Positions 9,603-32,144 of a stretch of DNA of 64,000 nucleotides are shown here, piece after piece. Source of the DNA: Escherichia coli (lineage in GTDB: Bacteria; Pseudomonadota; Gammaproteobacteria; Enterobacterales; Enterobacteriaceae). The notes under the pieces are model-generated. The model did no database searches and had not been told where the DNA came from. It saw nothing but the letters and a program-made list of their open reading frames with translations. The stretch lies in NCBI RefSeq assembly GCF_003334255.1, contig NZ_QOWU01000007.1; one strand, 5' to 3'. The position numbers and the translations under genes were made by a program. Position 1 is the first letter of the stretch. Every line of letters starts with the position of its first letter.

Positions 9603-10235
9603 TTATTCGCCGTCCTGCGTTTCTTCTACAGGCTGCATCTCGCTAAACCAGGTATCCAGTTTCTGCCGCAGCTTGTCCACGCCTTGTTTCTTCAACGAAG
9701 AAAACGTTTCAACCTGCACATCACCGTTAAACGCCAGTACAGCTTCACGCACCATATTCAATTGCGCTTTACGTGCGCCGCTTGCCAGTTTGTCCGCTTT
9801 GGTCAGCAGCACCAGAACGGCGATATTGCTGTCTACCGCCCACTCAATCATCTGCTGATCCAAATCTTTCAGCGGATGGCGAATATCCATTAGCACCACC
9901 AGACCTTGCAGGCTCTGACGTTTTTCGAGGTATTCGCCGAGCGCACGCTGCCATTTGCGCTTCATCTCTTCCGGGACTTCCGCATAACCGTACCCAGGCA
10001 AGTCAACCAGACGCTTGCCGTCAGCCACTTCAAACAGGTTGATAAGCTGGGTGCGCCCTGGGGTTTTTGAGGTACGAGCCAGGCTTTTCTGGTTAGTCAG
10101 CGTGTTCAGCGCGCTGGATTTACCTGCGTTGGAACGGCCTGCAAAAGCCACTTCAATTCCGGTATCGGAAGGTAGGTGGCGAATATCAGGCGCACTCATC
10201 ACAAAATGCGTCTGTTGATAATTCAAATTAGTCAA
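9603..10235 (-). CDS. engB: Ribosome biogenesis GTPase EngB (YihA)
   Basis: 210-aa ORF with G1 motif GRSNAGKSS and G3 DLPGYG. Confidence 0.95.
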
Positions 10236-10505
10236 AGCGGTCGTCTCCGTCAGTCAAAGCTTTGTGGCGATTATACCTGAACCATAATAAAAGGCGGATT
10301 TTTCGGCGTGAGCGTTGTAAGTAAAAGCCATACGCTTTGTGAGACATTGCCGATAGTCTTTATGCGAAATAGCAGAGAAAATTCTGCGATGCATGTCAAA
10401 TAAGCTATATAAATCAGTGAATTGCTTTTATATAAAACTCTGAAAATGTGCAAATACTGATGGCGGTTGATTGTTTGTTTAAAGCAAAGGCGTAAAGTAG
10501 CACCC

Positions 10506-10750
10506 ATAGAGCGAGGACGCTAACAGGAACAATGACTCAGGATGAGGGTCAGGAGCGCCAGGAGGCGAAGACAGAGGATTGTCAGGAAGACAAACGTCCG
10601 GAGACGTAATTAAACGGAAATGGAATCAACACGGATTGTTCCGGCTAAAGGAAAAACAGGGTGTGTTGGCGGCCTGCAAGGATTGTAAGACCCGTTAAGG
10701 GTTATGAGTCAGGAAAAAAGGCGACAGAGTAATCTGTCGCCTTTTTTCTT
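10506..10750 (+). ncRNA. csrC: CsrC small RNA (CsrA-sequestering)
   Basis: About 245 nt with many GGA motifs (AGGATGAGGGTCAGGAGCGCCAGGAGGCGAAGACAGAGGATTGTCAGGAAGACA...) ending in a strong terminator (GGCGACAGAGTAATCTGTCGCCTTTTTTCTT). Boundaries approximate. Confidence 0.85.
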
Positions 10751-10816
10751 TGCTTGCTTTCTGTTAGATTCCGCCGCAAATCTATACTGAATAAAACGGC
10801 TAAAAGACGAACCATT

Positions 10817-11326
10817 ATGAAACCATCATCTTCAAACTCACGCAGCAAAGGTCATGCAAAAGCGCGTCGAAAAACACGCGAGGAGCTGGATCAGGAAGCT
10901 CGTGATCGCAAGCGTCAGAAAAAACGTCGTGGTCATGCGCCGGGCAGCCGCGCAGCGGGCGGAAACACCACGTCAGGCAGCAAAGGCCAGAACGCACCAA
11001 AAGATCCACGTATTGGCAGTAAAACCCCTATTCCATTGGGCGTGACTGAAAAAGTCACCAAACAGCACAAACCGAAGAGTGAGAAACCTATGCTTTCACC
11101 GCAGGCGGAGTTGGAATTACTGGAAACGGATGAGCGTCTGGATGCGCTGCTGGAACGTCTGGAAGCAGGCGAAACCCTGAGTGCCGAAGAGCAATCCTGG
11201 GTGGATGCTAAACTGGATCGTATTGATGAGTTGATGCAGAAACTCGGCCTCTCTTATGACGATGACGAAGAAGAGGAAGAAGACGAGAAGCAAGAAGACA
11301 TGATGCGTCTGCTGCGGGGCAACTAA
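10817..11326 (+). CDS. yihI: Der GTPase-activating protein YihI
   Basis: Track ORF 10754-11326 trimmed to [13 protein letters not shown] (169 aa). Highly basic N-terminus and acidic C-terminal tail ([14 protein letters not shown]). Confidence 0.88.
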
Positions 11327-19916: not shown

Positions 19917-20627
19917 ATGGCGGAGAATCAATCCACCGTAGAAAATGCAAAAGAGAAACTGGATCGGTGGTTGAAAGATGGCATCACCACGCCGGGTGGA
20001 AAACTCCCTTCAGAAAGAGAGCTGGGAGAACTGCTGGGCATTAAACGTATGACGCTGCGCCAGGCGTTGTTGAACCTCGAGGCAGAATCCAAAATCTTCC
20101 GTAAGGATCGTAAGGGGTGGTTCGTGACCCAGCCGCGATTTAATTACAGTCCGGAGCTGTCGGCGAGCTTTCAGCGGGCCGCAATTGAGCAAGGGCGAGA
20201 GCCTTCCTGGGGGTTTACCGAGAAAAACCGTACCAGCGATATTCCCGAGACGCTCGCGCCACTGATTGCAGTGACGCCATCAACTGAACTCTATCGCATC
20301 ACCGGCTGGGGGGCGCTGGAAGGACATAAAGTTTTCTATCACGAAACATATATTAATCCTGAAGTTGCTCCGGGCTTTATTGAACAACTTGAAAACCACT
20401 CATTTTCTGCAGTCTGGGAAAAGTGCTACCAAAAAGAGACGGTAGTAAAAAAATTGATTTTCAAACCCGTCAGAATGCCGGGCGATATCAGCAAGTATCT
20501 TGGCGGTTCTGCGGGTATGCCAGCGATCTTAATTGAAAAGCATCGCGCCGACCAGCAAGGCAATATTGTCCAAATAGATATTGAATATTGGCGATTTGAG
20601 GCCGTAGACCTCATCATTAATCTGTAG
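19917..20627 (+). CDS. yihL: GntR-family transcriptional regulator (HTH plus UTRA effector domain)
   Basis: 236-aa ORF with an N-terminal GntR HTH (LPSERELGELLGIKRMTLRQAL). Confidence 0.85.
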   Translation: MAENQSTVENAKEKLDRWLKDGITTPGGKLPSERELGELLGIKRMTLRQALLNLEAESKIFRKDRKGWFVTQPRFNYSPELSASFQRAAIEQGREPSWGFTEKNRTSDIPETLAPLIAVTPSTELYRITGWGALEGHKVFYHETYINPEVAPGFIEQLENHSFSAVWEKCYQKETVVKKLIFKPVRMPGDISKYLGGSAGMPAILIEKHRADQQGNIVQIDIEYWRFEAVDLIINL

Positions 20628-20634
20628 GTGTTTT

Positions 20635-21615
20635 ATGGTGACAATAAATAACGCAAGAAAGATTCTACAACGTGTCGACACTCTTCCTCTTTATTTACAT
20701 GCTTATGCCTTTCATTTAAATATGCGGCTGGAAAGAGTGTTGCCTGCTGATTTACTTGATATCGCAAGTGAAAATAATCTACGTGGCGTCAAAATCCATG
20801 TTCTCGATGGCGAGCGTTTTTCTCTTGGTAATATGGACGATAAAGAACTCTCTGCCTTTGGGGATAAAGCCCGCCGTCTGAACCTTGATATTCATATTGA
20901 AACCAGCGCCTCAGATAAGGCATCTATTGACGAAGCCGTCGCCATCGCGTTGAAAACTGGGGCATCGTCCGTACGTTTTTATCCACGTTATGAAGGTAAT
21001 TTGCGCGACGTATTATCGATTATCGCTAACGACATTGCCTATGTACGGGAAACGTATCAGGACAGCGGCCTGACTTTTACGATCGAGCAGCATGAAGATT
21101 TAAAAAGTCATGAGCTGGTGTCGCTGGTCAAAGAAAGTGAGATGGAATCTCTTTCCTTACTGTTTGATTTTGCGAACATGATCAATGCAAATGAGCATCC
21201 CATCGACGCTTTAAAAACGATGGCACCGCATATTACCCAGGTCCATATCAAAGATGCCTTGATCGTTAAAGAACCGGGTGGCCTGGGTCATAAAGCCTGT
21301 ATTTCAGGTCAGGGTGATATGCCGTTCAAAGCGTTATTAACGCACCTTATCTGCCTGGGTGATGATGAGCCGCAGGTGACGGCATATGGCCTGGAAGAAG
21401 AGGTTGATTACTATGCGCCGGCGTTCCGCTTTGAAGACGAAGATGATAATCCGTGGATCCCTTATCGCCAGATGAGTGAAACACCATTGCCAGAAAATCA
21501 TTTACTGGATGCGCGGTTACGTAAAGAAAAAGAAGATGCAATTAATCAGATAAATCATGTGCGTAACGTACTACAACAAATCAAACAAGAGGCAAACCAT
21601 CTTCTGAACCACTAA
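20635..21615 (+). CDS. yihM: Sugar phosphate isomerase/epimerase (xylose-isomerase-like TIM barrel)
   Basis: 326-aa ORF, 8 bp downstream of yihL (operon). Confidence 0.8.
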   Translation: MVTINNARKILQRVDTLPLYLHAYAFHLNMRLERVLPADLLDIASENNLRGVKIHVLDGERFSLGNMDDKELSAFGDKARRLNLDIHIETSASDKASIDEAVAIALKTGASSVRFYPRYEGNLRDVLSIIANDIAYVRETYQDSGLTFTIEQHEDLKSHELVSLVKESEMESLSLLFDFANMINANEHPIDALKTMAPHITQVHIKDALIVKEPGGLGHKACISGQGDMPFKALLTHLICLGDDEPQVTAYGLEEEVDYYAPAFRFEDEDDNPWIPYRQMSETPLPENHLLDARLRKEKEDAINQINHVRNVLQQIKQEANHLLNH

Positions 21616-21716
21616 TAAGTTTTAACTCATACGCAGTTAATAAAACCATTCCATATGAATGGTCGGTATCTTATTGCCTTTAAAACAGTGATTTTAAAAA
21701 TCGCTTAGGGGATGTT

Positions 21717-22982
21717 ATGCTCACGAAAAAGAAATGGGCGTTATTTAGTCTATTAACACTGTGTGGCGGTACAATTTATAAATTACCGTCGCTGAAAGAT
21801 GCGTTTTATATCCCGATGCAGGAATATTTCCATTTGACCAATGGTCAAATTGGTAATGCTATGTCGGTAAACTCATTTGTCACCACAGTGGGCTTTTTTC
21901 TGTCTATTTATTTTGCCGATAAACTACCGCGCAGATACACCATGTCATTCTCACTCATTGCGACAGGATTACTGGGTGTTTATTTGACGACAATGCCGGG
22001 GTATTGGGGCATCCTCTTTGTCTGGGCGCTATTTGGCGTTACTTGCGACATGATGAACTGGCCGGTCTTGCTCAAGTCGGTAAGTCGATTGGGCAATAGC
22101 GAACAACAAGGTCGGTTGTTTGGCTTCTTCGAAACAGGGCGTGGCATTGTCGATACCGTGGTGGCATTTTCTGCGTTGGCAGTATTTACCTGGTTTGGCA
22201 GTGGCTTATTAGGTTTTAAAGCAGGCATCTGGTTCTATTCCCTTATTGTGATTGCCGTAGGCATTATTATTCTCTTTGTCCTGAATGACAAAGAAGAGGC
22301 ACCGTCCGTTGAGGTGAAAAAAGAAGACGGAGCATCGAAAAACACCAGTATGACCTCGGTGCTGAAAGACAAAACTATCTGGCTTATCGCTTTTAACGTC
22401 TTCTTCGTTTACGCGGTTTACTGTGGCCTGACATTCTTCATTCCATTCCTGAAAAACATCTATCTATTGCCCGTTGCGCTGGTGGGGGCTTACGGCATCA
22501 TTAACCAATACTGTCTGAAAATGATTGGTGGACCGATTGGTGGCATGATTTCAGATAAGATCCTGAAATCGCCAAGTAAATATCTATGCTACACCTTTAT
22601 CATTAGTACCGCTGCGCTCGTACTGTTGATTATGCTGCCGCACGAAAGTATGCCGGTCTATTTAGGGATGGCATGTACGCTGGGCTTTGGCGCGATAGTC
22701 TTTACACAGCGAGCCGTATTTTTTGCACCTATCGGCGAAGCAAAAATTGCTGAAAATAAAACAGGTGCGGCGATGGCGTTGGGTAGCTTTATTGGTTACG
22801 CTCCGGCGATGTTCTGCTTCAGTCTGTATGGCTACATTCTGGATTTAAATCCGGGGATTATTGGCTACAAAATCGTGTTTGGCATTATGGCCTGCTTCGC
22901 ATTCAGTGGTGCGGTGGTTTCCGTAATGCTGGTTAAGCGTATTAGCCAACGTAAGAAAGAGATGCTGGCGGCTGAAGCTTAA
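21717..22982 (+). CDS. yihN: MFS-family transporter
   Basis: 421-aa ORF with 12 predicted TM helices. Confidence 0.85.
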   Translation: MLTKKKWALFSLLTLCGGTIYKLPSLKDAFYIPMQEYFHLTNGQIGNAMSVNSFVTTVGFFLSIYFADKLPRRYTMSFSLIATGLLGVYLTTMPGYWGILFVWALFGVTCDMMNWPVLLKSVSRLGNSEQQGRLFGFFETGRGIVDTVVAFSALAVFTWFGSGLLGFKAGIWFYSLIVIAVGIIILFVLNDKEEAPSVEVKKEDGASKNTSMTSVLKDKTIWLIAFNVFFVYAVYCGLTFFIPFLKNIYLLPVALVGAYGIINQYCLKMIGGPIGGMISDKILKSPSKYLCYTFIISTAALVLLIMLPHESMPVYLGMACTLGFGAIVFTQRAVFFAPIGEAKIAENKTGAAMALGSFIGYAPAMFCFSLYGYILDLNPGIIGYKIVFGIMACFAFSGAVVSVMLVKRISQRKKEMLAAEA

Positions 22983-22987
22983 TTAAT

Positions 22988-23064
<77 letters not shown>

Positions 23065-23072
23065 GTTTCACA

Positions 23073-23765
23073 TCAGAAGAAATACTTCGTCCCGATACGG
23101 ATCTGGTTTTGCTCGCGGTGGTACGGTTCGACGTTGCGGTCTAACCAGCGCAATTCGAAATAAGGGAGCCAGTGTTCATTAATACGGTAACGGAAGGTGT
23201 TAGTGATTTCCCAATGATGATCTTTCCCGTTGCTACTATTAAAGTCATTCACTCGCATGAAGTAATGTGGCTCAAATGTATAGGAAAATTTATCGGTGAT
23301 TTTAAAATTCCAGTAGGTGCCAATTTCATAGGTGTCATTATTATCCAGTTCCCCGCTCAAATCTGTTGAACTATAGTTATTATGGTTATAGCGATTTCGT
23401 ACTGTCAGATTAAACCATGGTACAAATTTATAGTTGACGTCCAGATACACTGCACCACCCGAACCGATACTCTTATCATTAATTAAGCCACCGGGCTGGA
23501 TGGTTAATTTATCGGTTGGTTTAAATAACGGATACCAGCCTTCAATTTCGTTATATCCATGTTTTAGTTCATCTTCTCGCTGAAAGTTGTAGGTATTGGT
23601 TAACATAATACCCGCGCCCATATCGAAGTTATAACCCACACGTAGCATAACCTCGCCCTGATCGGAGGCAAGATTATATGCCTCCCTGTTTTCGACGTAT
23701 GCGCCAGCAAATACCGAGGCAGAGGTCAGAGAAGATAATAAAATTATTGCATTAATCTTTTTCAT
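23073..23765 (-). CDS. ompL: Outer membrane porin OmpL
   Basis: Track ORF trimmed to MKKINAIILLSSLTSASVFA (signal peptide), 230 aa. Ends with the C-terminal aromatic residue (...GTKYFF) typical of beta-barrel porins. Confidence 0.9.
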   Translation of the reverse strand: MKKINAIILLSSLTSASVFAGAYVENREAYNLASDQGEVMLRVGYNFDMGAGIMLTNTYNFQREDELKHGYNEIEGWYPLFKPTDKLTIQPGGLINDKSIGSGGAVYLDVNYKFVPWFNLTVRNRYNHNNYSSTDLSGELDNNDTYEIGTYWNFKITDKFSYTFEPHYFMRVNDFNSSNGKDHHWEITNTFRYRINEHWLPYFELRWLDRNVEPYHREQNQIRIGTKYFF

Positions 23766-23832
23766 AATAAGTCCATTTTTTAAACGTAGGGAGGCCGCCA
23801 CCCACCAGGATGGAAATAGCGGCTATTGACAT

Positions 23833-25236
23833 TTATAACGTTACGGAAGCCGTTTTTTCTTCTGTCGCCATCTCTTTATTTTTGCGTTGGTTGATTTCCT
23901 CAATAATCAATGCAAACCGTTTTTCATTGAGTGTGTAAAAGAATCCCATCGTCAATGCAGCAATAATTGCCAGTGCACAAGGCCAGATAAAAATGAGCTG
24001 ACGCAAACCCTGTAATGTCGCATCGCTTTGCGCGATGTTGGGAACATAACCAATTTGCGTCAGCATAATGCCTGGCAAGAAGCCAGCAAGTGCGGCAGAA
24101 ATTTTACGAAAGAAGGTATAACCGGTATAAACAGAACCTTCGGCACGAATACCGGTTTTCCATTCACCGTAATCTACGGTATCTGGTACCAGTGCCCAGT
24201 TCAGGCTGTTTACAAAGGCCGTGCCAAAAAAGGCGACACAAGAGAACATGACGAAAGTGAAAGAGTTACTTCCCCAGAAATAATTCAGTATATCACCCAC
24301 CGCCCACAGCACCATGCCAGCCAGATAAACCTGTTTTTTACCAAAACATTTTACAGTTAATGGCACCAGTAATACGCCGATGAGGATGCATCCCATACTG
24401 AAGAATCCCATCCACGACAATAAATTAATATCATTCAGCACATACTGGGTGTAATAGACCTGAATCGCCAGTTTGATATTAAATGCCGCCAGGGTACACA
24501 AGTTAGCAATGCATAAAACCAGCAATGGCGGATTCCGAAATATCGCGCAAAATGATTTGAGAATACTGGCTTTATGTCCGGTTGGCGTTGTGTCCACATA
24601 ATGCTCTTTGACGCCTCTGTAGCACAGCATCATAAAAATAAAGCCGCCAATGGAGAACATAAGTGCCGCACAGGCATAACCGACGGTTGAGTCAGAAAAA
24701 AGCGACTGCAACGGAATAAACGCCACGGTACAAATCAATAGCCCTATGGTTGCACCACCCTGGCGGTAAGCCGCGAGCTGCGCGCGCTCATTCGGGTTTT
24801 TGGTAATTGCCGGGATCATCGCACCATACGAGCAGTTCATCAGACTGTATGAAAGTCCAAACATCATAAACAGCGCGGTGGCAATCGTCGTTTTAACCGG
24901 CAAACAAAAGGTGGTGGCGATAAACTGGAGCGTTGCAATTAACGCCGCCGGAACCGCTGCATATAAAATAAAGGGACGAAATTTGCCTTTAGGCCCAATA
25001 TTTTTCCGCGAGTCGAGTAAAAATCCGGTGAGCATATCGGTAAACGCGGTAAAAAACTTCGCCACCAGAAAGATAATCCCGCCATAGTAAGCAGGCATCC
25101 CTAATTCATCGGTATAAAATTTGAGGAGATACAGAGTACCGATGCAGAGCATTAAATTCGAACCGACGTCGCCCATACCATAGGCGATTTTTTCCCGCAG
25201 ATTCAGTTTTAATGTCAGTGGATTATGGTCAGACAT
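23833..25236 (-). CDS. yihO: GPH-family sugar:cation symporter (sulfoquinovose/sulfoquinovosyl-glycerol importer candidate)
   Basis: 467 aa from MSDHNPLTLK. Polytopic membrane protein, paralog of the adjacent yihP. Confidence 0.9.
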   Translation of the reverse strand: MSDHNPLTLKLNLREKIAYGMGDVGSNLMLCIGTLYLLKFYTDELGMPAYYGGIIFLVAKFFTAFTDMLTGFLLDSRKNIGPKGKFRPFILYAAVPAALIATLQFIATTFCLPVKTTIATALFMMFGLSYSLMNCSYGAMIPAITKNPNERAQLAAYRQGGATIGLLICTVAFIPLQSLFSDSTVGYACAALMFSIGGFIFMMLCYRGVKEHYVDTTPTGHKASILKSFCAIFRNPPLLVLCIANLCTLAAFNIKLAIQVYYTQYVLNDINLLSWMGFFSMGCILIGVLLVPLTVKCFGKKQVYLAGMVLWAVGDILNYFWGSNSFTFVMFSCVAFFGTAFVNSLNWALVPDTVDYGEWKTGIRAEGSVYTGYTFFRKISAALAGFLPGIMLTQIGYVPNIAQSDATLQGLRQLIFIWPCALAIIAALTMGFFYTLNEKRFALIIEEINQRKNKEMATEEKTASVTL

Positions 25237-25278
25237 AATCACTCCTTATAACGCCCCGCAGGGCGTCGTTTATTATTA

Positions 25279-26664
25279 TTACGCCGTGCGTTTACGGGCT
25301 TCTATCTCTTCCACAATGCGGACATACATCTTCTCGTTCAGGCTGTAGAAGCAACCCATCGCCACAATGGTGACTACCGCCAGTGCGCTTGGGTAGATGA
25401 AGATCAACTGGCGTAACCCTTCAATGGTGTGGTCAGCCTGTGCGACGTTCGGCACATAGCCAATTTGCGTCAGCATCCAGCCGGGGAAGAAACCAGCCAG
25501 CGCCTGAGACACTTTGCGAAAGAAGGTAAAACCGGTGTAGACCGTTCCTTCCGAACGCACGCCGGTGCGCCACTCGCCGTACTCGACGGTGTCGGAAACC
25601 AGCGCCCAGTTCAGGCTGTTAACAAACGCTGAGCCAAAGAACGCCAGGCAGGAGAACGCCACGAAGCTGACCGAACCGCCGCCGAAGAAATAGTTGAGCA
25701 GATCGCCCAGCACCCAAATCAGCAGGCCGCCGATATAAACTTTCTTCTTGCCAAAACGTCTGACTGAGGCAGGCATCAGGAATACGCCGATGAAAATACA
25801 GCCCATGCTGAAAAATCCCATATACGACAACAGGATGGGATCGTTAAGCACGTACTGGGTGTAATAGACCTGGATGGCGAGCTTGACGTTAAACGCCCCT
25901 AAAGTGCAGAGGTTGGCAATGCACAGAATGAACAGCGGGCGGTTACCCGCAATTGCGCGGAAAGATTGCAGCAGGCCCGGCTTTTGCGCCGGATTAGCAG
26001 GCTGGGTTTCGACATAACGCTCTTTCACGCCCGAGTAGCAGATCCACATAAACAGCAGGCCAAACAGTGAAAACAGCGTGGCGGCGAAGATATAGCCAAG
26101 TTGCTGATTACCTTCGATAAGATTCATAACTGGCACGAATCCCACCGTGCACAGCAGCAGGCCCAGCGTAGCGCCGCCCTGACGCCATGCCGCCAGTGAG
26201 GCGCGTTCGTTGGGGTTTTTGGTGATAGCGGGAACCATTGCGCCGTAGGAGCAGTTCATCATGCTGAAAAACAGTCCGTAAAGCATAAACAGAATAGTGG
26301 CCATCACCGTTTTACCGGTGACATCAAACGGTGTGCCGACAAAGTTGGCGATCGCCAGTAAGGTGACCGGGAATGACGCATACAGAATAAAAGGACGGAA
26401 CTTACCTTTTGGACCGATCTTGCGTCGGGAATCCAACATAATGCCGGTACCCATATCGGTAAACGCAGTAAAGAATTTTGAAATCAAAAAGATAATGCCG
26501 CCATAGGTGCCTGGCAGCCCCAGAACGTCGGTATAAAACTTCAAAAGATAAAGCGTACCGATATCCAGCAGGATGTTAGAGGCCAGGTCGCCAATACCGT
26601 AAGAGAGTTTCTCTTTAAAGGGCAGGCGTAAAGTTGCTGGATCTTCCGTTGTGATGTGACTCAT
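25279..26664 (-). CDS. yihP: GPH-family sugar:cation symporter
   Basis: Track ORF 25279-26697 trimmed to MSHITTEDPATL (461 aa). Aligns along its length with YihO. Confidence 0.88.
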   Translation of the reverse strand: MSHITTEDPATLRLPFKEKLSYGIGDLASNILLDIGTLYLLKFYTDVLGLPGTYGGIIFLISKFFTAFTDMGTGIMLDSRRKIGPKGKFRPFILYASFPVTLLAIANFVGTPFDVTGKTVMATILFMLYGLFFSMMNCSYGAMVPAITKNPNERASLAAWRQGGATLGLLLCTVGFVPVMNLIEGNQQLGYIFAATLFSLFGLLFMWICYSGVKERYVETQPANPAQKPGLLQSFRAIAGNRPLFILCIANLCTLGAFNVKLAIQVYYTQYVLNDPILLSYMGFFSMGCIFIGVFLMPASVRRFGKKKVYIGGLLIWVLGDLLNYFFGGGSVSFVAFSCLAFFGSAFVNSLNWALVSDTVEYGEWRTGVRSEGTVYTGFTFFRKVSQALAGFFPGWMLTQIGYVPNVAQADHTIEGLRQLIFIYPSALAVVTIVAMGCFYSLNEKMYVRIVEEIEARKRTA

Positions 26665-26709
26665 CGATGTTCTCCCTTTGCCCATGAGTTTCCCCACGGG
26701 CGGATGTGA

Positions 26710-28746
26710 TTAGATGCTTTTTAACGACGCGAACAGTGCCGCCCATTCGCTATCGGCGCGATAAAAGACCGGCGGCTTGCCGATGGGCGCATTAACGGTA
26801 ACTTCCCCGCCCCGGAACGCTTCACCCGTCCAGGCGTGGACCCAGTTATCCTCCGGCAGATAGAGCGTCCAGTCGCTACGGCCTTCTTCATGCACCGGAG
26901 CGACCAGAATGTCGCGACCTAACAGGTACTGATATTTCAGGGTGTAAGTGTGCGCATCGTCTTCGTAATGCAGGAACAGCGGGCGCATAACCGGCAGGCC
27001 GGACTTCGCATTCAGCGCGACGGCCTCTTTCAGGTAAGGTTTCAGGGTGGTGAAGACGGTGGTCATACGGGCGAAATGGGCGATGGTTTCTGCGTCGCCG
27101 TCAAACTGCCAGTTGTCGCCAGGACGGTTACCTTCGTGGGTGCGCATCATCGGCGTGAAGGCGCTGAAATCGCACCAGCGCAGCAGCAGCTCTTTGCTGC
27201 GCTTCATCTCAAACAGGGTGGTGTAACCGCCAATGTCGCTGTGGTGCAGGCCATGTCCGGTCATTGCCAGCGACAGCGCCGCCGGGACAACCGACGCCAG
27301 GCCATCGTCGAGACTCCAGTCGACGTTCTGGTCGCCCGCCCACATCATGGTGGAGTATTTCTGGCTACCGGTAGAACCGGCGCGCATAAAGAAAAGGATC
27401 TCGCCGAGCTTGCCCGTTTCTTCAAGGGCTTCGTAGTTACACTTCGCCCACAGCGCAGGCCAGGCGTTATGCATAATTTCGGCACTGACGCCGTTATGCA
27501 GGTACGTGTCGGTGGGCAGATACTCGCCGAAGTCAGCCATCCAGCCGCCGCAGCCGAGTTCAATCATGTTCTTTTTGATCACTTCCTTGAACCAGGCGTA
27601 GGCTTCTGGATTAGTGAGATCGACAACGCCGCCGTAAAACTCGCCAAACTCCACCAGATAGTCACCGCCAGAGGCATCTTTTGCCAGATAGCCGTGTTGT
27701 GCCGCTTCTTCGCAGAGATCTTTATCGCTGGCAACATACGGGTTGATATAGGCCAGGAACTGCACGCCCTCCTGATTCCACTGCTTAATGCGTGAATCCA
27801 GTTGCGGGTAGTTTTCGCTGTTCCACTTCCAGTTCCACATCACGCGTTTGCCAAAAGAGGTCATACGAATACCGGACCAGTCCTGCGCCCAGATGCCGTT
27901 GACCTTCACGCCCGCGTTACGCATGGTGTCCAGTTTCTTCTGGCACACTTCCGTCCCGCCCTGAATGCCGAGCGTTACTCCGTCATAAATCCAGTCGGGC
28001 AGTTCTGGCTGGCGTCCCAGCAGGGCGGTTAATTTTTCCAGCAGGGAAATGTATGTGTCAGCACATTCAAAACGCAGCGTTGCTTTGTCTTCCCACAGCG
28101 CCAGTTCATGGTATTCCGGGGCACTAAAGTCGAAGTTCATATAGCAACTGTTATCAACATGGCAGTAATACTTCTGCGTGCTGACAAACGTAGGCTGTGG
28201 GAAGAAAGTCCAGTAATAGTCGCCGCCCGCATTTTCTTTGCAGTCGGCCTGCCAGGTGACATAGGTTTGTTTGTTGCGACCAACGCCTTGTTCACTGGTC
28301 CATAGCGGGAACGGTTTGCCACGCAGATCGAAGTAGGAAAACTGTTCGCCGCAGCCGTAGATATGGTCCTCTGGTTGAGCGGCAAGGCGCAGCCAGATAC
28401 GGTTGTGGTTAAGGTTGTCGTTTTGTAGTTCCAGCAATAAACGCCCCTGATCGTCGGCAGAGATATTCAGCGTGGCGCTAATGTCAGAACCACGGCTGAA
28501 ATGAATTAACCAACCATCCGGTGACTGGCTGACGATGGCGTCGGTAAGCGCAATTTTCTCCTGTAGTTTATCTTTAATGCTGAAATTACCGCGGAACATA
28601 TCGATATCCGCTATACCTGAGCCAATCCATAAACAAGGATTATCTTTGCTATGGGTTAAAATAAGACGTTGTTGAAAATGTAGGGTAAAACTGTCGTTAT
28701 TCTGATGAAATTGAAAATCTAATAACTGTGGACGTGGCGTATCCAT
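26710..28746 (-). CDS. yihQ: Sulfoquinovosidase (glycoside hydrolase family 31)
   Basis: 678-aa ORF with GH31 motifs (WMADFGE region). Confidence 0.92.
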   Translation of the reverse strand: MDTPRPQLLDFQFHQNNDSFTLHFQQRLILTHSKDNPCLWIGSGIADIDMFRGNFSIKDKLQEKIALTDAIVSQSPDGWLIHFSRGSDISATLNISADDQGRLLLELQNDNLNHNRIWLRLAAQPEDHIYGCGEQFSYFDLRGKPFPLWTSEQGVGRNKQTYVTWQADCKENAGGDYYWTFFPQPTFVSTQKYYCHVDNSCYMNFDFSAPEYHELALWEDKATLRFECADTYISLLEKLTALLGRQPELPDWIYDGVTLGIQGGTEVCQKKLDTMRNAGVKVNGIWAQDWSGIRMTSFGKRVMWNWKWNSENYPQLDSRIKQWNQEGVQFLAYINPYVASDKDLCEEAAQHGYLAKDASGGDYLVEFGEFYGGVVDLTNPEAYAWFKEVIKKNMIELGCGGWMADFGEYLPTDTYLHNGVSAEIMHNAWPALWAKCNYEALEETGKLGEILFFMRAGSTGSQKYSTMMWAGDQNVDWSLDDGLASVVPAALSLAMTGHGLHHSDIGGYTTLFEMKRSKELLLRWCDFSAFTPMMRTHEGNRPGDNWQFDGDAETIAHFARMTTVFTTLKPYLKEAVALNAKSGLPVMRPLFLHYEDDAHTYTLKYQYLLGRDILVAPVHEEGRSDWTLYLPEDNWVHAWTGEAFRGGEVTVNAPIGKPPVFYRADSEWAALFASLKSI

Positions 28747-28944
28747 AACTAATCTCCATAGAGTTGAGAACGAGATTGTTGCCTTCCTGTTATTACAGGC
28801 TTATGTAAAATGATTCTCATAAAACTGATATATAAAAACTTTACAGAAGCTGAGCTGTTTTTAACTTAATAAATTGAAGATACATAATGTTGCCTTTAGC
28901 GAGTGAAATGTTCTTCAATGATTTTGACTGCTAATCAATACAAG

Positions 28945-29871
28945 TTATTTTCTCTGTCCGTAAATATTAAAAAACAGGCGGTGCGGTTTTCCTGATTCCA
29001 GTAATAATAAGTCGATACCTGAATTAAAGGCGTTAGGCGGGCAACTCATAGGTTCAACTGCCAGTCCCTGACGCTGTAATTTTTCACCGCTATAAACCTG
29101 CACCCAGAGTTGATCGGAACAAAGGCTTACCGAAAGCGCCTGCTGTGGATGGGTAATGGTCATTTCCCACAAATCATTAGCGGTTTTAAAGGTGTGGTCG
29201 ATTTTTGTCGCGGCTATTTTTTTCGCCTGCGTGAAATTTAAATCCAGCTCATCAACGTGGTGAAGCGTTGTCGGATTCGCGTGCTCATCGACGGCATAAA
29301 CCTGGTTTGCCGGAAGCTGGAACAGATATTCATCAACAGATGTTAAGTTGCAGGTTAAATAAGGATGAATACCCACGCCATAAGGCGCTGCGACAGTGCC
29401 GATATTCTGGCTTGCGATCTCAACGGAAAGACCCGTGTGTGCGTTGAGCGAATAAACAACTTGTGAAGCCAGCATAAACGGATAGCCGTAACTGGGCGGC
29501 AGAAAAGCTGTCAGGGTAACGCTGGTGGCGGTTAATTCACTAATTTGCCAGTCTCGCCAGGCAAGCAGCCCGTGAATAGCGGCTTTTGAACTATGTTCAT
29601 TAATGGGTAACTGATATTCCTGCCCCTGATAGCGGTAACAGCCGTTGGCGATCCGGTTCGGCCACGGAATAAGCACTTTACCCAGATGCGCCAGCGGCAT
29701 CTCTTCGGGTTTGTGCGGGATGACTAAATGACAACCCTGAAAGGTTAATTCAGCCAGACCAGCACCGACGGTCACAATGGTCGCGTGATAATCCCCCGCG
29801 GCAAGTGAAACGGTCTGTCCACTGCAATGCATATTGGTGATTTGCATACAAGGCACCTTAATTAACGACAT
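28945..29871 (-). CDS. yihR: Aldose 1-epimerase-family protein (sulfoquinovose mutarotase)
   Basis: 308-aa ORF. Confidence 0.9.
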   Translation of the reverse strand: MSLIKVPCMQITNMHCSGQTVSLAAGDYHATIVTVGAGLAELTFQGCHLVIPHKPEEMPLAHLGKVLIPWPNRIANGCYRYQGQEYQLPINEHSSKAAIHGLLAWRDWQISELTATSVTLTAFLPPSYGYPFMLASQVVYSLNAHTGLSVEIASQNIGTVAAPYGVGIHPYLTCNLTSVDEYLFQLPANQVYAVDEHANPTTLHHVDELDLNFTQAKKIAATKIDHTFKTANDLWEMTITHPQQALSVSLCSDQLWVQVYSGEKLQRQGLAVEPMSCPPNAFNSGIDLLLLESGKPHRLFFNIYGQRK

Positions 29872-29879
29872 ACAGCCTC

Positions 29880-29980
29880 CCGTGAGGCTGATGTCAAACC
29901 CAAAAACTGCACCGGACGGTCCCCTCGCCCCTTTGGGGAGAGGGTTAGGGAGAGGGGAAAACCCGCACCCTATTTTCAGA
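29880..29980. repeat. GC-rich structured intergenic element (unclassified)
   Basis: CCCCTCGCCCCTTTGGGGAGAGGGTTAGGGAGAGGGG contains nested CCCCT/AGGGG inverted repeats. I cannot assign it to a named repeat family. Confidence 0.3.
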
Positions 29981-29984
29981 TCAG

Positions 29985-31226
29985 TTATTTCGCATTAATA
30001 TCCAGCAGACCCGCTGCAACCGCTGGAGCCATGCCGGGCGCTAACGGGATACGCGGGATCACCAGGCAATGCAGCAGGTGATAAATATCCTGTTTGCCGT
30101 CCCAGACTTTGGTGGTGACCTTATTGTCCGCATCCAGCTCCTGCCACCAGGAACCATTTTCATAGTCCATCAGGTACTTAATGCAGTACTCCCACCATGT
30201 TTGATACCAGGTTTCATACTGGCGATCGCCAGTGACGGTGTAGAGCGCGTAGGCCGTACCCATTGCTTCGACGATAGGCCAACGTACACGTTCGCGGACC
30301 ACCGGTTTTCCTTCCCAGTCAACGGTATAAACAATCCCGTCCGCGCCATCGGGTGCCCAGGCATCGCGCACGGTGGCGTTAAACAGACCTTTGGCATCTT
30401 CTAGCAGCCATGCTGGTGGTTGTTCGCAACGGGCTTCCAGGGCAGCATGGATGTGCAGCATTAAACGGCCCCATTCGATCCAGTGGCCTGGTGTACCTCC
30501 GAACGCGCGGAAGCGATGCGCCGGGTTATCTTTGTTGTAATCCGGCAGCGGATTCCACTGGGTATCGAAGTGTTCGTTAACGCGATAATGATTATTTCTG
30601 GCGACGTCGTGGATAATCACGGAAGCCACGCGAATCGCGCGATCCAGCCATTTTTTGTCGTGAGTGACGTCATAAACAATCAAGAAAGCTTCCACCGCGT
30701 GCATATTGGCATTGCCGCCGCGGTACTCTTCGGTTTTGCTGAAGGCTTCGTCCCAGGATTCCAGGCACATCTGCTCTTCTTCGCTCCAGAAATATTTCTC
30801 GATAATTTCAATGGTGTAATCGAGCAGCTTGCGCGCTTCCGGGTGACCCGTTGTGACGGCGCTGGCGGCACCCAGCAGAGCAAAGAAGTGTTGATAGCCC
30901 TGTTTGGAGGCATCCACCACGCCCTCGTCATTCACGCAGGCATACCAGCCGCCATATTTTTTATCACGCAGTGCGCCGTTCATGGCTTTGATACCGTGAT
31001 CAACCAACGAGTAAGCGCCAGGTCGACCCATCGCCGCAGCAACGGAATAAACGTGCAACATACGAGCGGTGATCCACAGATGGGTGCCCATCTCTTCTTT
31101 GATTTGCCCTTTATTGCCTAACCAGCCAAAACCAGTCGGCACTACGGAATTTTTACCAAAATCAAAGATGCGGTCGGTTTCCTGTTCCAGCCAACGGTTG
31201 TGGCTTAGGGTGTTAAACCATTTCAT
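29985..31226 (-). CDS. yihS: Sulfoquinovose isomerase (N-acyl-glucosamine 2-epimerase fold)
   Basis: Track ORF trimmed to [16 protein letters not shown] (413 aa). Confidence 0.92.
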
Positions 31227-31242
31227 TCCTTTTATCCTCATC

Positions 31243-32121
31243 TTAGCGGCGTTTAGCCATCATTTCGTCGACGATATCGCCAAGTTGTTGTAATTTCGGT
31301 GCGCAAACGTCACGCAGCATCAGCTCGTTGTCTGGTAAACCGACGACCGATGCCCAGACTGCACGGCCTGCCAGGAATCCCGATGCGCCCGCCGTCATTG
31401 CCACGCGTACGGCACGCGGGAACAGTTTTTCGTCGACACCGGAAGAGAGGATCACCCATGGCATATTGATATGGTCATTCAGACGTTGTGAAGCACAGAG
31501 AAGCTCTTGTTGCGGACCTTTGCCATAAAGCGGCATTTCAACTTTGTAGAGGTCAGCGCCACTGTCGCCCAGCTCTTTGGCGGCATCGATGATCGCTTGT
31601 TCGCGATCGAATTTATCGCCACGACGCGGTGGGCGGACGACTGGCTCAATGATGCTTACCAGACCGTGTGAGTGGCACAGTTCGTTGAACTCTTTCACCA
31701 TATCCAGACGTTGCTGCGCATCTTCATCACTACGCCACAGCACCAGCAGTTTTAAGGCTTTGCCACCGTCTTGTTTGATCTGTAGCGGATTGATTTTGCG
31801 GTCAATAACCACGCTATCGACCGGAATACCGTTGCCAGGAATGAACTCATCGGCGGCGACAATCATGGCGCAACTTTTGGCAATCGCGTTTTGCTCAACC
31901 ACCTGGCGGTAGCAGAATTGTTGATCTACCAGAATCGCCGAGGCATAAGGCGAGAGGGCCTTTGCAGCGTTAACTTTGAAATCAGTTAAAACGCTATCGG
32001 CTACCGGAGCGGGTGCCCCAGCCGCGGCAAACATCATGCGCATGGCTTCGCGCTGATCGACCGCCAGCATGGCAAAACCGCCCGATGCGCGCGTAATGTC
32101 GTTGATGGTGTACTTATTCAT
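31243..32121 (-). CDS. yihT: 6-deoxy-6-sulfofructose-1-phosphate aldolase (class I aldolase)
   Basis: 292-aa ORF. Confidence 0.92.
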
Positions 32122-32144
32122 TCATTTATTCCTTTATCCAGTCG

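Follow-up and report, generated by a model that had tools for sequence, protein, structure and literature searches.

The E. coli pathway for sulfoquinovose (SQ) carries two adjacent and homologous transporters, YihO and YihP, which raises the question of how they share the work. Few organosulfur compounds are as abundant as SQ, the model organism for its breakdown is E. coli, and DHPS, the C3 sulfonate end-product of sulfoglycolysis, feeds gut bacteria making sulfite and H2S. An answer was reportedly put forward in 2014, with YihO as SQ importer and YihP as DHPS exporter; the pair was already named and known, and the import-versus-export idea is a published proposal, not a new lead. The role of YihO is accepted in the literature on a purely genetic basis, while DHPS export by YihP is termed ‘most likely’ or ‘not experimentally characterized’ in all the papers that we found (PMC6278857; bioRxiv 10.1101/2021.11.10.468170). 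In the literature that we searched, we found no transport assay of YihP and no direct SQ uptake assay of YihO.

The window analyzed here, a stretch of 64,000 nucleotides, is E. coli K-12-like, and the region of interest matches K-12 derivatives at 100% identity; the two genes are annotated there as yihO and yihP. As predicted from the sequence, these are tandem same-strand ORFs of about 465 codons, both intact and both on the minus strand: yihO (23833..25236) encodes a 467-aa GPH-family MFS transporter, and yihP (25279..26664) its 461-aa paralogue, the putative DHPS exporter. The 42-bp gap between them contains a GC-rich hairpin (ACGCCC-TGCG-GGGCGT, 25251..25266, minus strand) with no U-run behind it; next comes the ribosome-binding site of yihO, a strong AAGGAG. 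Directly upstream of yihP, after 45 bp, lies the sulfoquinovosidase gene yihQ (26710..28746), followed by a spacer of 198 bp (28747..28944) and by yihR, yihS, yihT, and yihU (28945..33041), coding for a mutarotase, an isomerase, an aldolase, and an SLA reductase, all on the minus strand. The sulfofructose kinase gene yihV and the repressor gene csqR (33209..34924, plus strand) are divergent from yihU (PMC8006165), and the outer-membrane porin gene ompL (23073..23765, minus strand) closes the series 67 bp past yihO. The gene order is therefore yihU>T>S>R>Q>P>O>ompL. The original prediction had placed the transporters at the head of the operon, but being on the minus strand and downstream of yihU-T-S-R-Q they are distal genes at the 3' end of the cluster. 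A promoter and terminator scan of positions 22900-33400 gave promoter counts no higher than in shuffled sequence, with nothing promoter-like on the minus strand of the yihR-yihQ spacer, and an Rfam scan of the cluster matched zero RNA families.

The attribution of the pair to SQ metabolism holds well beyond this K-12-identical cluster. In our comparative set of yih loci from 72 genomes, yihO and yihP are components of the sulfo-EMP (yih) cassette, and their linkage with yihQ, yihS/T/U/V, and csqR is kept. The order yihQ-yihP-yihO is found in about 63 of the 72 loci, from Enterobacterales and Anaerobiospirillum, and wherever yihP is present, it adjoins yihQ. Moreover, ompL, yihO, and yihP are all induced by SQ (log2FC of at least 5; PMC12608037). 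These data bear on a role outside sulfoglycolysis, such as the assembly or translocation of O-antigen capsule, which has been proposed for the Salmonella yih operon: yihUTSRQPO and yihVW are tied there to capsule production (PMC7922415, citing Gibson 2006). However, a 100-fold induction of the operon came without a rise in capsule yield (PMC7922415), the pair is invariably found alongside the sulfo-EMP enzymes, and both genes respond to SQ, all of which makes a capsule role very improbable.

Membership of both proteins in the GPH:cation symporter family (TC 2.A.2), also predicted, is secure. YihO and YihP score 529 and 537 bits against TIGR00792 (cutoff 231.35), with alignments that run over the entire profile (positions 1-437 of 437), and Pfam MFS_2 (PF13347) is precomputed on their orthologues. 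Both remain below the cutoffs of the equivalogs for Na+-coupled MelB-type galactoside transporters (NF007749; 220 and 215 bits, cutoff 456) and for glucuronide transporters (NF007353; 289 and 295 bits, cutoff 528). YihO matches MelB at E = 8e-40, and its AF2 model (pLDDT 92.1, pTM 0.87), with 12 TM helices and a C-terminal helix, has its best PDB matches in MelB structures (TM 0.86-0.87, rmsd about 3 Å, 25% identity); given its identity to YihO, YihP likely has the same MelB-type fold. The helix-II Asp at which cation or proton coupling takes place (MelB Asp59) is invariant (100%) among 66 YihO and 66 YihP orthologues.

The two proteins are paralogues that align along their length, as had been claimed: BLASTP gives 295 identical residues out of 456 (65%), 81% similarity, and three gap positions (623 bits, E = 0), and the motif originally quoted occurs in both (LYLLKFYTDELGMPAYYGGIIFLVAKFFTAFTDM in YihO, LYLLKFYTDVLGLPGTYGGIIFLISKFFTAFTDM in YihP). 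Their genes are about 68% identical without long identical tracts, and in a repeat search diverged paralogy (300 nt at 73%) was the sole signal, gene-conversion tracts between them being absent. Across the 72 genomes, two clean clades are recovered (O, n = 66; P, n = 67) that span the same Enterobacterales plus Anaerobiospirillum, so that the pair goes back to one single, old duplication. The dN/dS values, 0.025-0.098 for YihO and 0.004-0.073 for YihP across many genera, are far below 1 and indicate that strong purifying selection keeps both copies, which occur together in about 3890 of 5426 complete genomes of E. coli. The YihP clade is more conserved than the YihO clade. A relative-rate test of YihO against YihP, with SftA or the Chimaeribacter GPH transporter as outgroup, counted 36 versus 28 unique changes (p = 0.38), an asymmetry that is not significant, so neither copy can be called overall ‘the derived one’.

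Could the two copies simply be redundant isoforms, or one of them be decaying? Their identity and common pocket residues would allow it, as would the IS-disrupted or truncated yihO alleles of some E. coli. Yet both ORFs are intact here, the clades have stayed distinct without gene conversion, and, according to PMC6278857, citing Denger 2014, deletion of yihO alone abolishes growth on SQ, aerobic or fermentative, despite the presence of yihP. With this phenotype and the purifying selection on both copies since their duplication, YihO and YihP are clearly not redundant, and redundancy or decay is effectively refuted.

We therefore asked which different jobs the two might do. The explanation that we prefer, to which we give a probability of roughly 45%, is that YihO is the importer and YihP the DHPS exporter. 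The two would form an old tandem of proton-coupled GPH transporters of MelB fold serving the SQ pathway, in which YihO would take up SQ and probably also its glycerol glycoside, and YihP would most likely be the route out for DHPS, which would probably follow its gradient in a proton-linked manner. The N-terminus of YihQ has no signal-peptide-like segment, which implies that SQ glycosides need to be imported prior to cleavage.

As originally stated, the division of labour is not readable from the sequence. The predicted pockets are almost identical. Comparison of the pairwise identity with the pocket residues, as suggested at the outset, sets 65% overall against only four differences at 27 MelB pocket positions (MelB 116, 120, 338, and 372), these being mapped via alignment to MelB and not measured in 3D. 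Both proteins keep an Arg-Lys pair at MelB 376/377, on helix XI near the sugar C6 (PMC8329300), which may represent the sulfonate site. From pathway chemistry, DHPS corresponds to the C4-C6 ‘sulfonate end’ of SQ (PMC6278857), so a pocket that keeps this pair could still hold it. The pockets are also less acidic than that of MelB and bear an extra positive charge, which would fit the binding of an anionic sugar and, probably, coupling to H+ instead of Na+. What distinguishes YihP is first the MelB Tyr120 position, occupied by Tyr in YihO, SftA, hexuronide-type relatives, and MelB, and by Phe in YihP, which alone has lost this family-invariant residue. Second, four clade-specific changes (M29L, I254V, T339S, and Y373F from YihO to YihP, in YihO numbering) leave YihP with a smaller or less polar residue and sit at or next to positions of the MelB aglycone cavity (PMC8329300).

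Not all of this favors an exporter. The YihP pocket residues, would-be contacts to hexose C1-C3 included, recur in 89-100% of YihP orthologues, and such a YihO-like pocket would not be expected in a carrier of a C3 sulfonate. SftA, a predicted importer, is also closer to YihP (9 of the diverged sites) than to YihO (4 of them). The same two observations support two importers split by substrate, YihO taking up free SQ and YihP SQ glycosides such as sulfoquinovosyl glycerol for cleavage by YihQ in the cytoplasm, with DHPS leaving via TauE where present and via some unlinked exporter in K-12. The changes near the aglycone cavity, the constant adjacency of yihP and yihQ, and the need to import glycosides are consistent with this split, while the loss in YihP of a Tyr kept by all predicted importers goes against it.

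A further possibility that starts from the near identity of the pockets is precursor/product exchange, with SQ(in):DHPS(out) exchange as the main activity of one or both proteins and the copies differing in kinetics or mode, not in substrate. Such a mode exists in the family, as the GPH member LacS swaps lactose for galactose, and the common sulfonate end of SQ and DHPS together with the Arg-Lys pair kept in both proteins would be compatible with it. However, in view of cassettes that combine YihO with TauE, or YihO and YihP with TauE, export would seem to be a function of its own, and exchange leaves the need for two copies unexplained; we consider it unlikely.

For YihP as exporter, gene content offers suggestive evidence. 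In many Enterobacterales the cassette has an eleventh gene, coding for a putative sulfonate exporter of the TauE/SafE type (PF01925, E = 2.9e-34). In E. coli it is present in the yihR-yihQ interval of 1295 of the 5426 complete genomes and in about one third of the long cassettes, including O157:H7; it is absent from K-12 and from this window. TauE-type proteins are predicted SL/DHPS exporters in other sulfoglycolysis clusters (PMC7491151, PMC8873060). The order yihQ-TauE-yihO, without yihP, occurs in Lelliottia nimipressuralis, Klebsiella quasipneumoniae, Enterobacter bugandensis, and one MAG. yihP is missing solely from cassettes with TauE in its place, and no intact cassette among the loci of the 72 genomes surveyed is without both. 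Chimaeribacter keeps yihP but has, in place of yihO, an importer of the SftA type with 59% identity to the GPH transporter of the sulfo-TAL cluster.

A clean non-orthologous displacement of yihP by TauE, whose slot it occupies in loci L048 and L071, would have been proof of the exporter role, but we rejected it: a tblastn search of TauE against all loci places it together with yihP in 15 of the 72, the two also occur together in the 1295 E. coli genomes, and because of this coexistence the replacement argument supports the exporter weakly. yihP is missing from 2 of 17 loci with TauE versus 0 of 51 others, a difference that is not significant (Fisher p of about 0.06) and is drawn from observations that are not independent, the yihP-less architecture probably representing one evolutionary event. 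Where the two coexist, the dN/dS of TauE (0.02-0.08) shows purifying selection on this gene as well, and its divergence parallels that of the cassette; taken with the coexistence, this indicates that TauE and yihP are not simply interchangeable. Compared with a TauE-bearing allele, the K-12 yihR-yihQ spacer has no TauE remnant, short matches (15 and 20 nt) being confined to the last 55 bp or so before yihQ, and the direction of the TauE event in the K-12 lineage, loss or gain, can be tentatively read from the co-divergence of TauE and cassette alone.

The many cassettes that hold both a TauE-type exporter and yihP, each under purifying selection, give further support to two importers split by substrate. 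On the other hand, yihQ is intact in the yihP-less cassettes of at least four named species, where YihP must be dispensable for glycoside import, Chimaeribacter has YihP in addition to an SftA-type importer, and in Firmicutes SftA alone serves clusters with a glycosidase. We regard the substrate split as possible but doubtful. The same holds, tentatively, for a related reading in which the textbook K-12 scheme mis-assigns YihP: the ancestral cassette of the enterobacteria would have had eleven genes, with TauE as DHPS exporter and YihP as a second importer, either an SQ-glycoside specialist or one working in another affinity range, and DHPS would leave K-12 by an unlinked route.

Assigning uptake of SQ and SQ-glycerol and release of DHPS to individual transporters would complete the pathway map, and would also bear on models of gut cross-feeding and on engineering work. 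The choice of useful experiments is now narrower: K-12 is without a TauE gene that many E. coli have, and YihO and YihP are set apart by very few pocket positions, notably by the Tyr-to-Phe change at the family-invariant site.

Among known systems, the GPH prototype is MelB, the Na+/melibiose symporter of Salmonella and E. coli (PDB 7L16, 7L17, 4M64), with the same 12-helix MFS_2 fold. Its Asp59 is kept as D67 in YihO and D70 in YihP, as are Lys377, Thr373, and Gly117. In both paralogues, however, the sugar-binding Asp19 and Asp124 are replaced by Asn, Lys18 by Ser, and Trp128 by Gly, while Asp55 and Asn58 of the Na+ site are both Thr and Val376 is Arg.

The nearest full-length relative outside YihO and YihP is SftA (51-52% identity), the sole GPH transporter of Firmicute sulfo-TAL clusters and a predicted SQ importer, whose cluster includes a GH31 sulfoquinovosidase (PMC7491151). 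It has the Asn/Asn, Gly, and Arg-Lys pocket features in common with them, and differs at the site of MelB Asp55, which is still Asp in SftA but Thr in YihO and YihP. SftA is single-copy and accompanied by a separate exporter gene, of TauE type (PMC7491151) or, in locus L079, Mem_trans. Next come the glucuronide/hexuronide transporters of the GusB/UidB type (NF007353; 35-39% identity), found in UxaC/UxuA/GH2 contexts, which have the helix-XI Arg-Lys near the C6 anionic group in common with YihO and YihP; these two are not members of that equivalog, and their context is sulfoglycolysis, not hexuronate catabolism. Finally, the TauE/SafE proteins (TSUP; SftE of sulfo-TAL clusters, TauE of Cupriavidus) are putative sulfonate exporters, the same role that is proposed for YihP, although their fold and family (PF01925) are unrelated to it.

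Over 23500-27000, the window is 100% identical to E. coli K-12 derivatives. With gene names taken from the RefSeq annotation of one such derivative, ER1709 (locus L001), it contains yihO (23833-25236, minus strand, 467 aa) and yihP (25279-26664, minus strand, 461 aa) as intact ORFs. The original prediction of a tandem, same-strand pair of full-length paralogues holds: the pairwise comparison that it had proposed gives 65% identity and 81% similarity over 456 aligned residues with 3 gap positions, and its quoted motif is found in both proteins. The genes are ~68% identical as DNA, with no long identical tracts between them. Both proteins also belong, as anticipated, to the GPH family, scoring well beyond the curated cutoff of 231 bits for TIGR00792 (YihO 529 bits, YihP 537 bits), and both fall under the cutoffs of the equivalog models for MelB, glucuronide and YagG. 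The closest solved relative is the melibiose symporter MelB (E = 8e-40), and an AlphaFold2 model of YihO built from 71 sequences (pLDDT 92, pTM 0.87), with 12 TM helices and a C-terminal helix, superposes on sugar-bound MelB with a TM score of 0.87. The pair is real, yet already named and well known, and its division of labour is a question already published as open. In several genomes, among them the K-12 derivatives ET12567 and J53, the equivalent 3.5-kb region is broken by IS elements (ISVsa5/IS10-like, IS1, IS2, IS5); IS5 lies within yihO in one strain, and a YihO allele cut to residues 1-340 (protein P0106) represents 388 database sequences.

The catabolic genes from yihU (32145-33041) to ompL (23073-23765) all lie on the minus strand and are transcribed in the order yihU, yihT, yihS, yihR, yihQ, yihP, yihO, ompL, with gaps of 42-67 bp between yihQ, yihP, yihO and ompL. 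The CsqR-controlled promoter region is located between yihU and yihV (PMC8006165, PMC8249747), and the Salmonella literature describes yihUTSRQPO as a single operon read from the yihU promoter (PMC7922415). The two transporter genes therefore occupy the tail of the cluster, and not the head of the operon where they had been placed. The 42-bp yihP-yihO spacer carries a GC-rich, perfect 6-bp hairpin (25251-25266) with no U-run, ahead of a strong yihO ribosome-binding site (AAGGAG), and this hairpin could affect relative expression of the two genes or mRNA stability. yihU is intact in the window and frameshifted in the otherwise identical ER1709 (L001, 20646-21541). Beside the cassette, an uncharacterised three-gene unit adjoins ompL on the opposite strand (19917-22982, plus strand), and comprises yihL (GntR regulator), yihM (sugar-phosphate isomerase/epimerase family) and yihN (MFS transporter).

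A proposal made in 2014, that YihO imports sulfoquinovose (SQ) and YihP exports the C3 sulfonate end-product DHPS, is repeated throughout the literature that we found. YihP is called 'most likely' an exporter there, or 'not experimentally characterized' (PMC6278857; bioRxiv 10.1101/2021.11.10.468170; PMC12890257). The string 'YihP' occurs in 83 papers, many of them unrelated matches, and the 40 ranked highest include no transport assay of it. According to PMC6278857, a yihO deletion mutant does not grow on SQ, so YihP is no adequate SQ importer, which we count in favour of export.

To date the duplication, we surveyed one genome per species (72 loci), placing yih genes by tblastn. Rooted on MelB, a neighbour-joining tree of 136 copies resolves two clean clades, O (n=66) and P (n=67), which hold the same taxa (Enterobacteriaceae, Erwiniaceae, Yersiniaceae, Hafniaceae, Budviciaceae, Pectobacteriaceae, and an Anaerobiospirillum MAG), and thus shows a single duplication predating dispersal of the cassette. 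There is no sign in this tree of concerted evolution, and within-genome identity between the copies ranges from 56 to 71%. Values of dN/dS (0.025-0.098 for YihO, 0.004-0.073 for YihP) indicate strong purifying selection on both. Excluding Yersinia and Serratia, YihP orthologues are closer to each other than those of YihO in 99% of species pairs (mean identity 0.894 versus 0.816); a relative-rate test with SftA, the GPH transporter of Firmicute sulfo-transaldolase (sulfo-TAL) clusters, as outgroup detects no overall asymmetry (36 versus 28 unique changes, p = 0.38). Of 5426 complete E. coli genomes, 3891 have yihO and 3892 have yihP, the remainder matching the published 'short cassette' (PMC12608037). 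YihO and YihP are non-redundant, and each is functional.

Within E. coli, nearly every genome has yihO DNA of 95% identity or more, and yihP shows deep allele classes, 1513 genomes being just 90-95% identical to K-12; the YihP protein hardly varies. Such a pattern is suggestive of old haplotypes, or of recombination that broke near the yihP/yihO boundary. Both copies of Pectobacterium betavasculorum (L006) and Enterobacillus tribolii (L060) cluster tightly with Citrobacter and not with their own families, a grouping indicative of horizontal transfer of the whole cassette.

Variation in cassette content bears on the function of yihP. In Lelliottia nimipressuralis and one MAG, the yihP slot is filled by a 303-304-aa TauE/SafE protein (PF01925, E = 2.9e-34); in Klebsiella quasipneumoniae and Enterobacter bugandensis the cassette likewise reads yihQ-TauE-yihO and is otherwise complete. 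TauE coexists with yihP and yihO in 15 of the 72 loci, in the yihR-yihQ or the yihQ-yihP interval, and is present in 1295 of the 5426 complete E. coli genomes, O157:H7 included, where it separates yihR from yihQ (e.g. 10001-10876 in locus L074 and 8576-9451 in L084). Neither gene nor remnant is found in K-12 or in the yihR-yihQ spacer of the window (28747-28944). Since TauE diverges together with the cassette (mean identity 82%, equal to that of YihQ; correlations 0.69-0.86) and evolves under purifying selection (dN/dS 0.02-0.08), it is an old component of it.

No intact cassette among the loci surveyed lacks both yihP and TauE. The sole single-copy locus without TauE, in the degraded genome of Candidatus Symbiopectobacterium endolongispinus (L046, 10001-11401), encodes a transporter with a YihP-like N-terminus and a YihO-like remainder that looks like a deletion fusion of the tandem paralogues. 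Moreover, Chimaeribacter has an SftA-type transporter in place of yihO (59% identity to the GPH protein of a sulfo-TAL cluster) and retains yihP. Loss of yihP only where TauE is present, its retention when the importer was swapped, and the lack of intact cassettes without either gene argue that YihP is a putative DHPS exporter, a reading to which we assign a probability of about 0.45. The association of yihP loss with TauE (2/17 versus 0/51) is not significant (Fisher p ~0.06) and its observations are not independent, the yihP-less architecture being probably a single evolutionary event. DHPS would leave by proton-linked efflux down its own gradient, as in the energy-recycling model for end-products, which is mechanistically plausible. 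The long coexistence of yihP and TauE under selection, together with the position of yihP next to the sulfoquinovosidase gene yihQ, speaks instead for import of SQ glycosides by YihP, the second of two main readings and in our view the less likely one.

The cassettes of Yersinia, Serratia, Hafnia and Chimaeribacter lack yihT, yihS and yihR (L045, 2913-6278; also L051, L052, L054, L056, L057, L063, L065, L067, L068 and L072). Their yihU-yihQ interval instead encodes a class II ketose-bisphosphate aldolase, an epimerase of the GalM type and a sulfoquinovose isomerase that resembles SftI (284 bits, short of the cutoff of 700). Such cassettes appear to be hybrids that combine sulfo-EMP parts with EMP2/TAL-type ones.

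Residues of the substrate-binding helices, whose comparison had also been proposed, were mapped by alignment to the crystallographic sugar and cation sites of MelB (PMC8329300). Features shared by the paralogues are conserved in ~90-100% of orthologues: Asn replaces MelB Asp19 and Asp124, Ser replaces Lys18, Gly replaces Trp128, and Thr/Thr replaces the Na+ ligands Asp55 and Asn58, while Asp59, the proposed proton site, is kept. On helix XI, both also carry Arg-Lys where MelB has Val376/Lys377, close to C6 of the sugar. The sulfonate of SQ sits on C6, and the pair, also present in SftA and in relatives from hexuronate or glucuronide contexts, would fit recognition of a C6 anion. The clades differ at just 17 fixed columns (conservation of at least 90% in each), four of them on helix XI (S368, Y373, A381, L387) and a fifth, I363, in the loop immediately preceding it. 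At MelB Tyr120, YihO and all outgroups have Tyr, and 95% of YihP orthologues have Phe133; YihP Tyr129 lies one helical turn away, where YihO has Phe126. At MelB Gln372, YihO has Tyr373, and YihP, SftA and the extra copy of Chimaeribacter have Phe. The hexose-type pocket, almost wholly conserved in YihP, and several smaller or less polar residues near the MelB aglycone-cavity positions would suit a glycoside importer. Loss of the family-invariant Tyr in YihP only, together with retention of the sulfonate-end Arg-Lys, is in line with DHPS export, DHPS being the C4-C6 fragment of SQ. An exchange mechanism and roles outside sulfoglycolysis are minor alternatives.

The case for YihP as 'the' DHPS exporter was made by elimination on the K-12 cassette, from which a TauE-type gene is missing that other E. 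coli and Enterobacterales commonly carry and that a 2025 paper on yih cassette variants does not mention. For the sulfo-TAL clusters of Firmicutes, import is assigned by prediction to a single GPH protein (SftA), and export of SL or DHPS to a separate membrane protein (PMC7491151).
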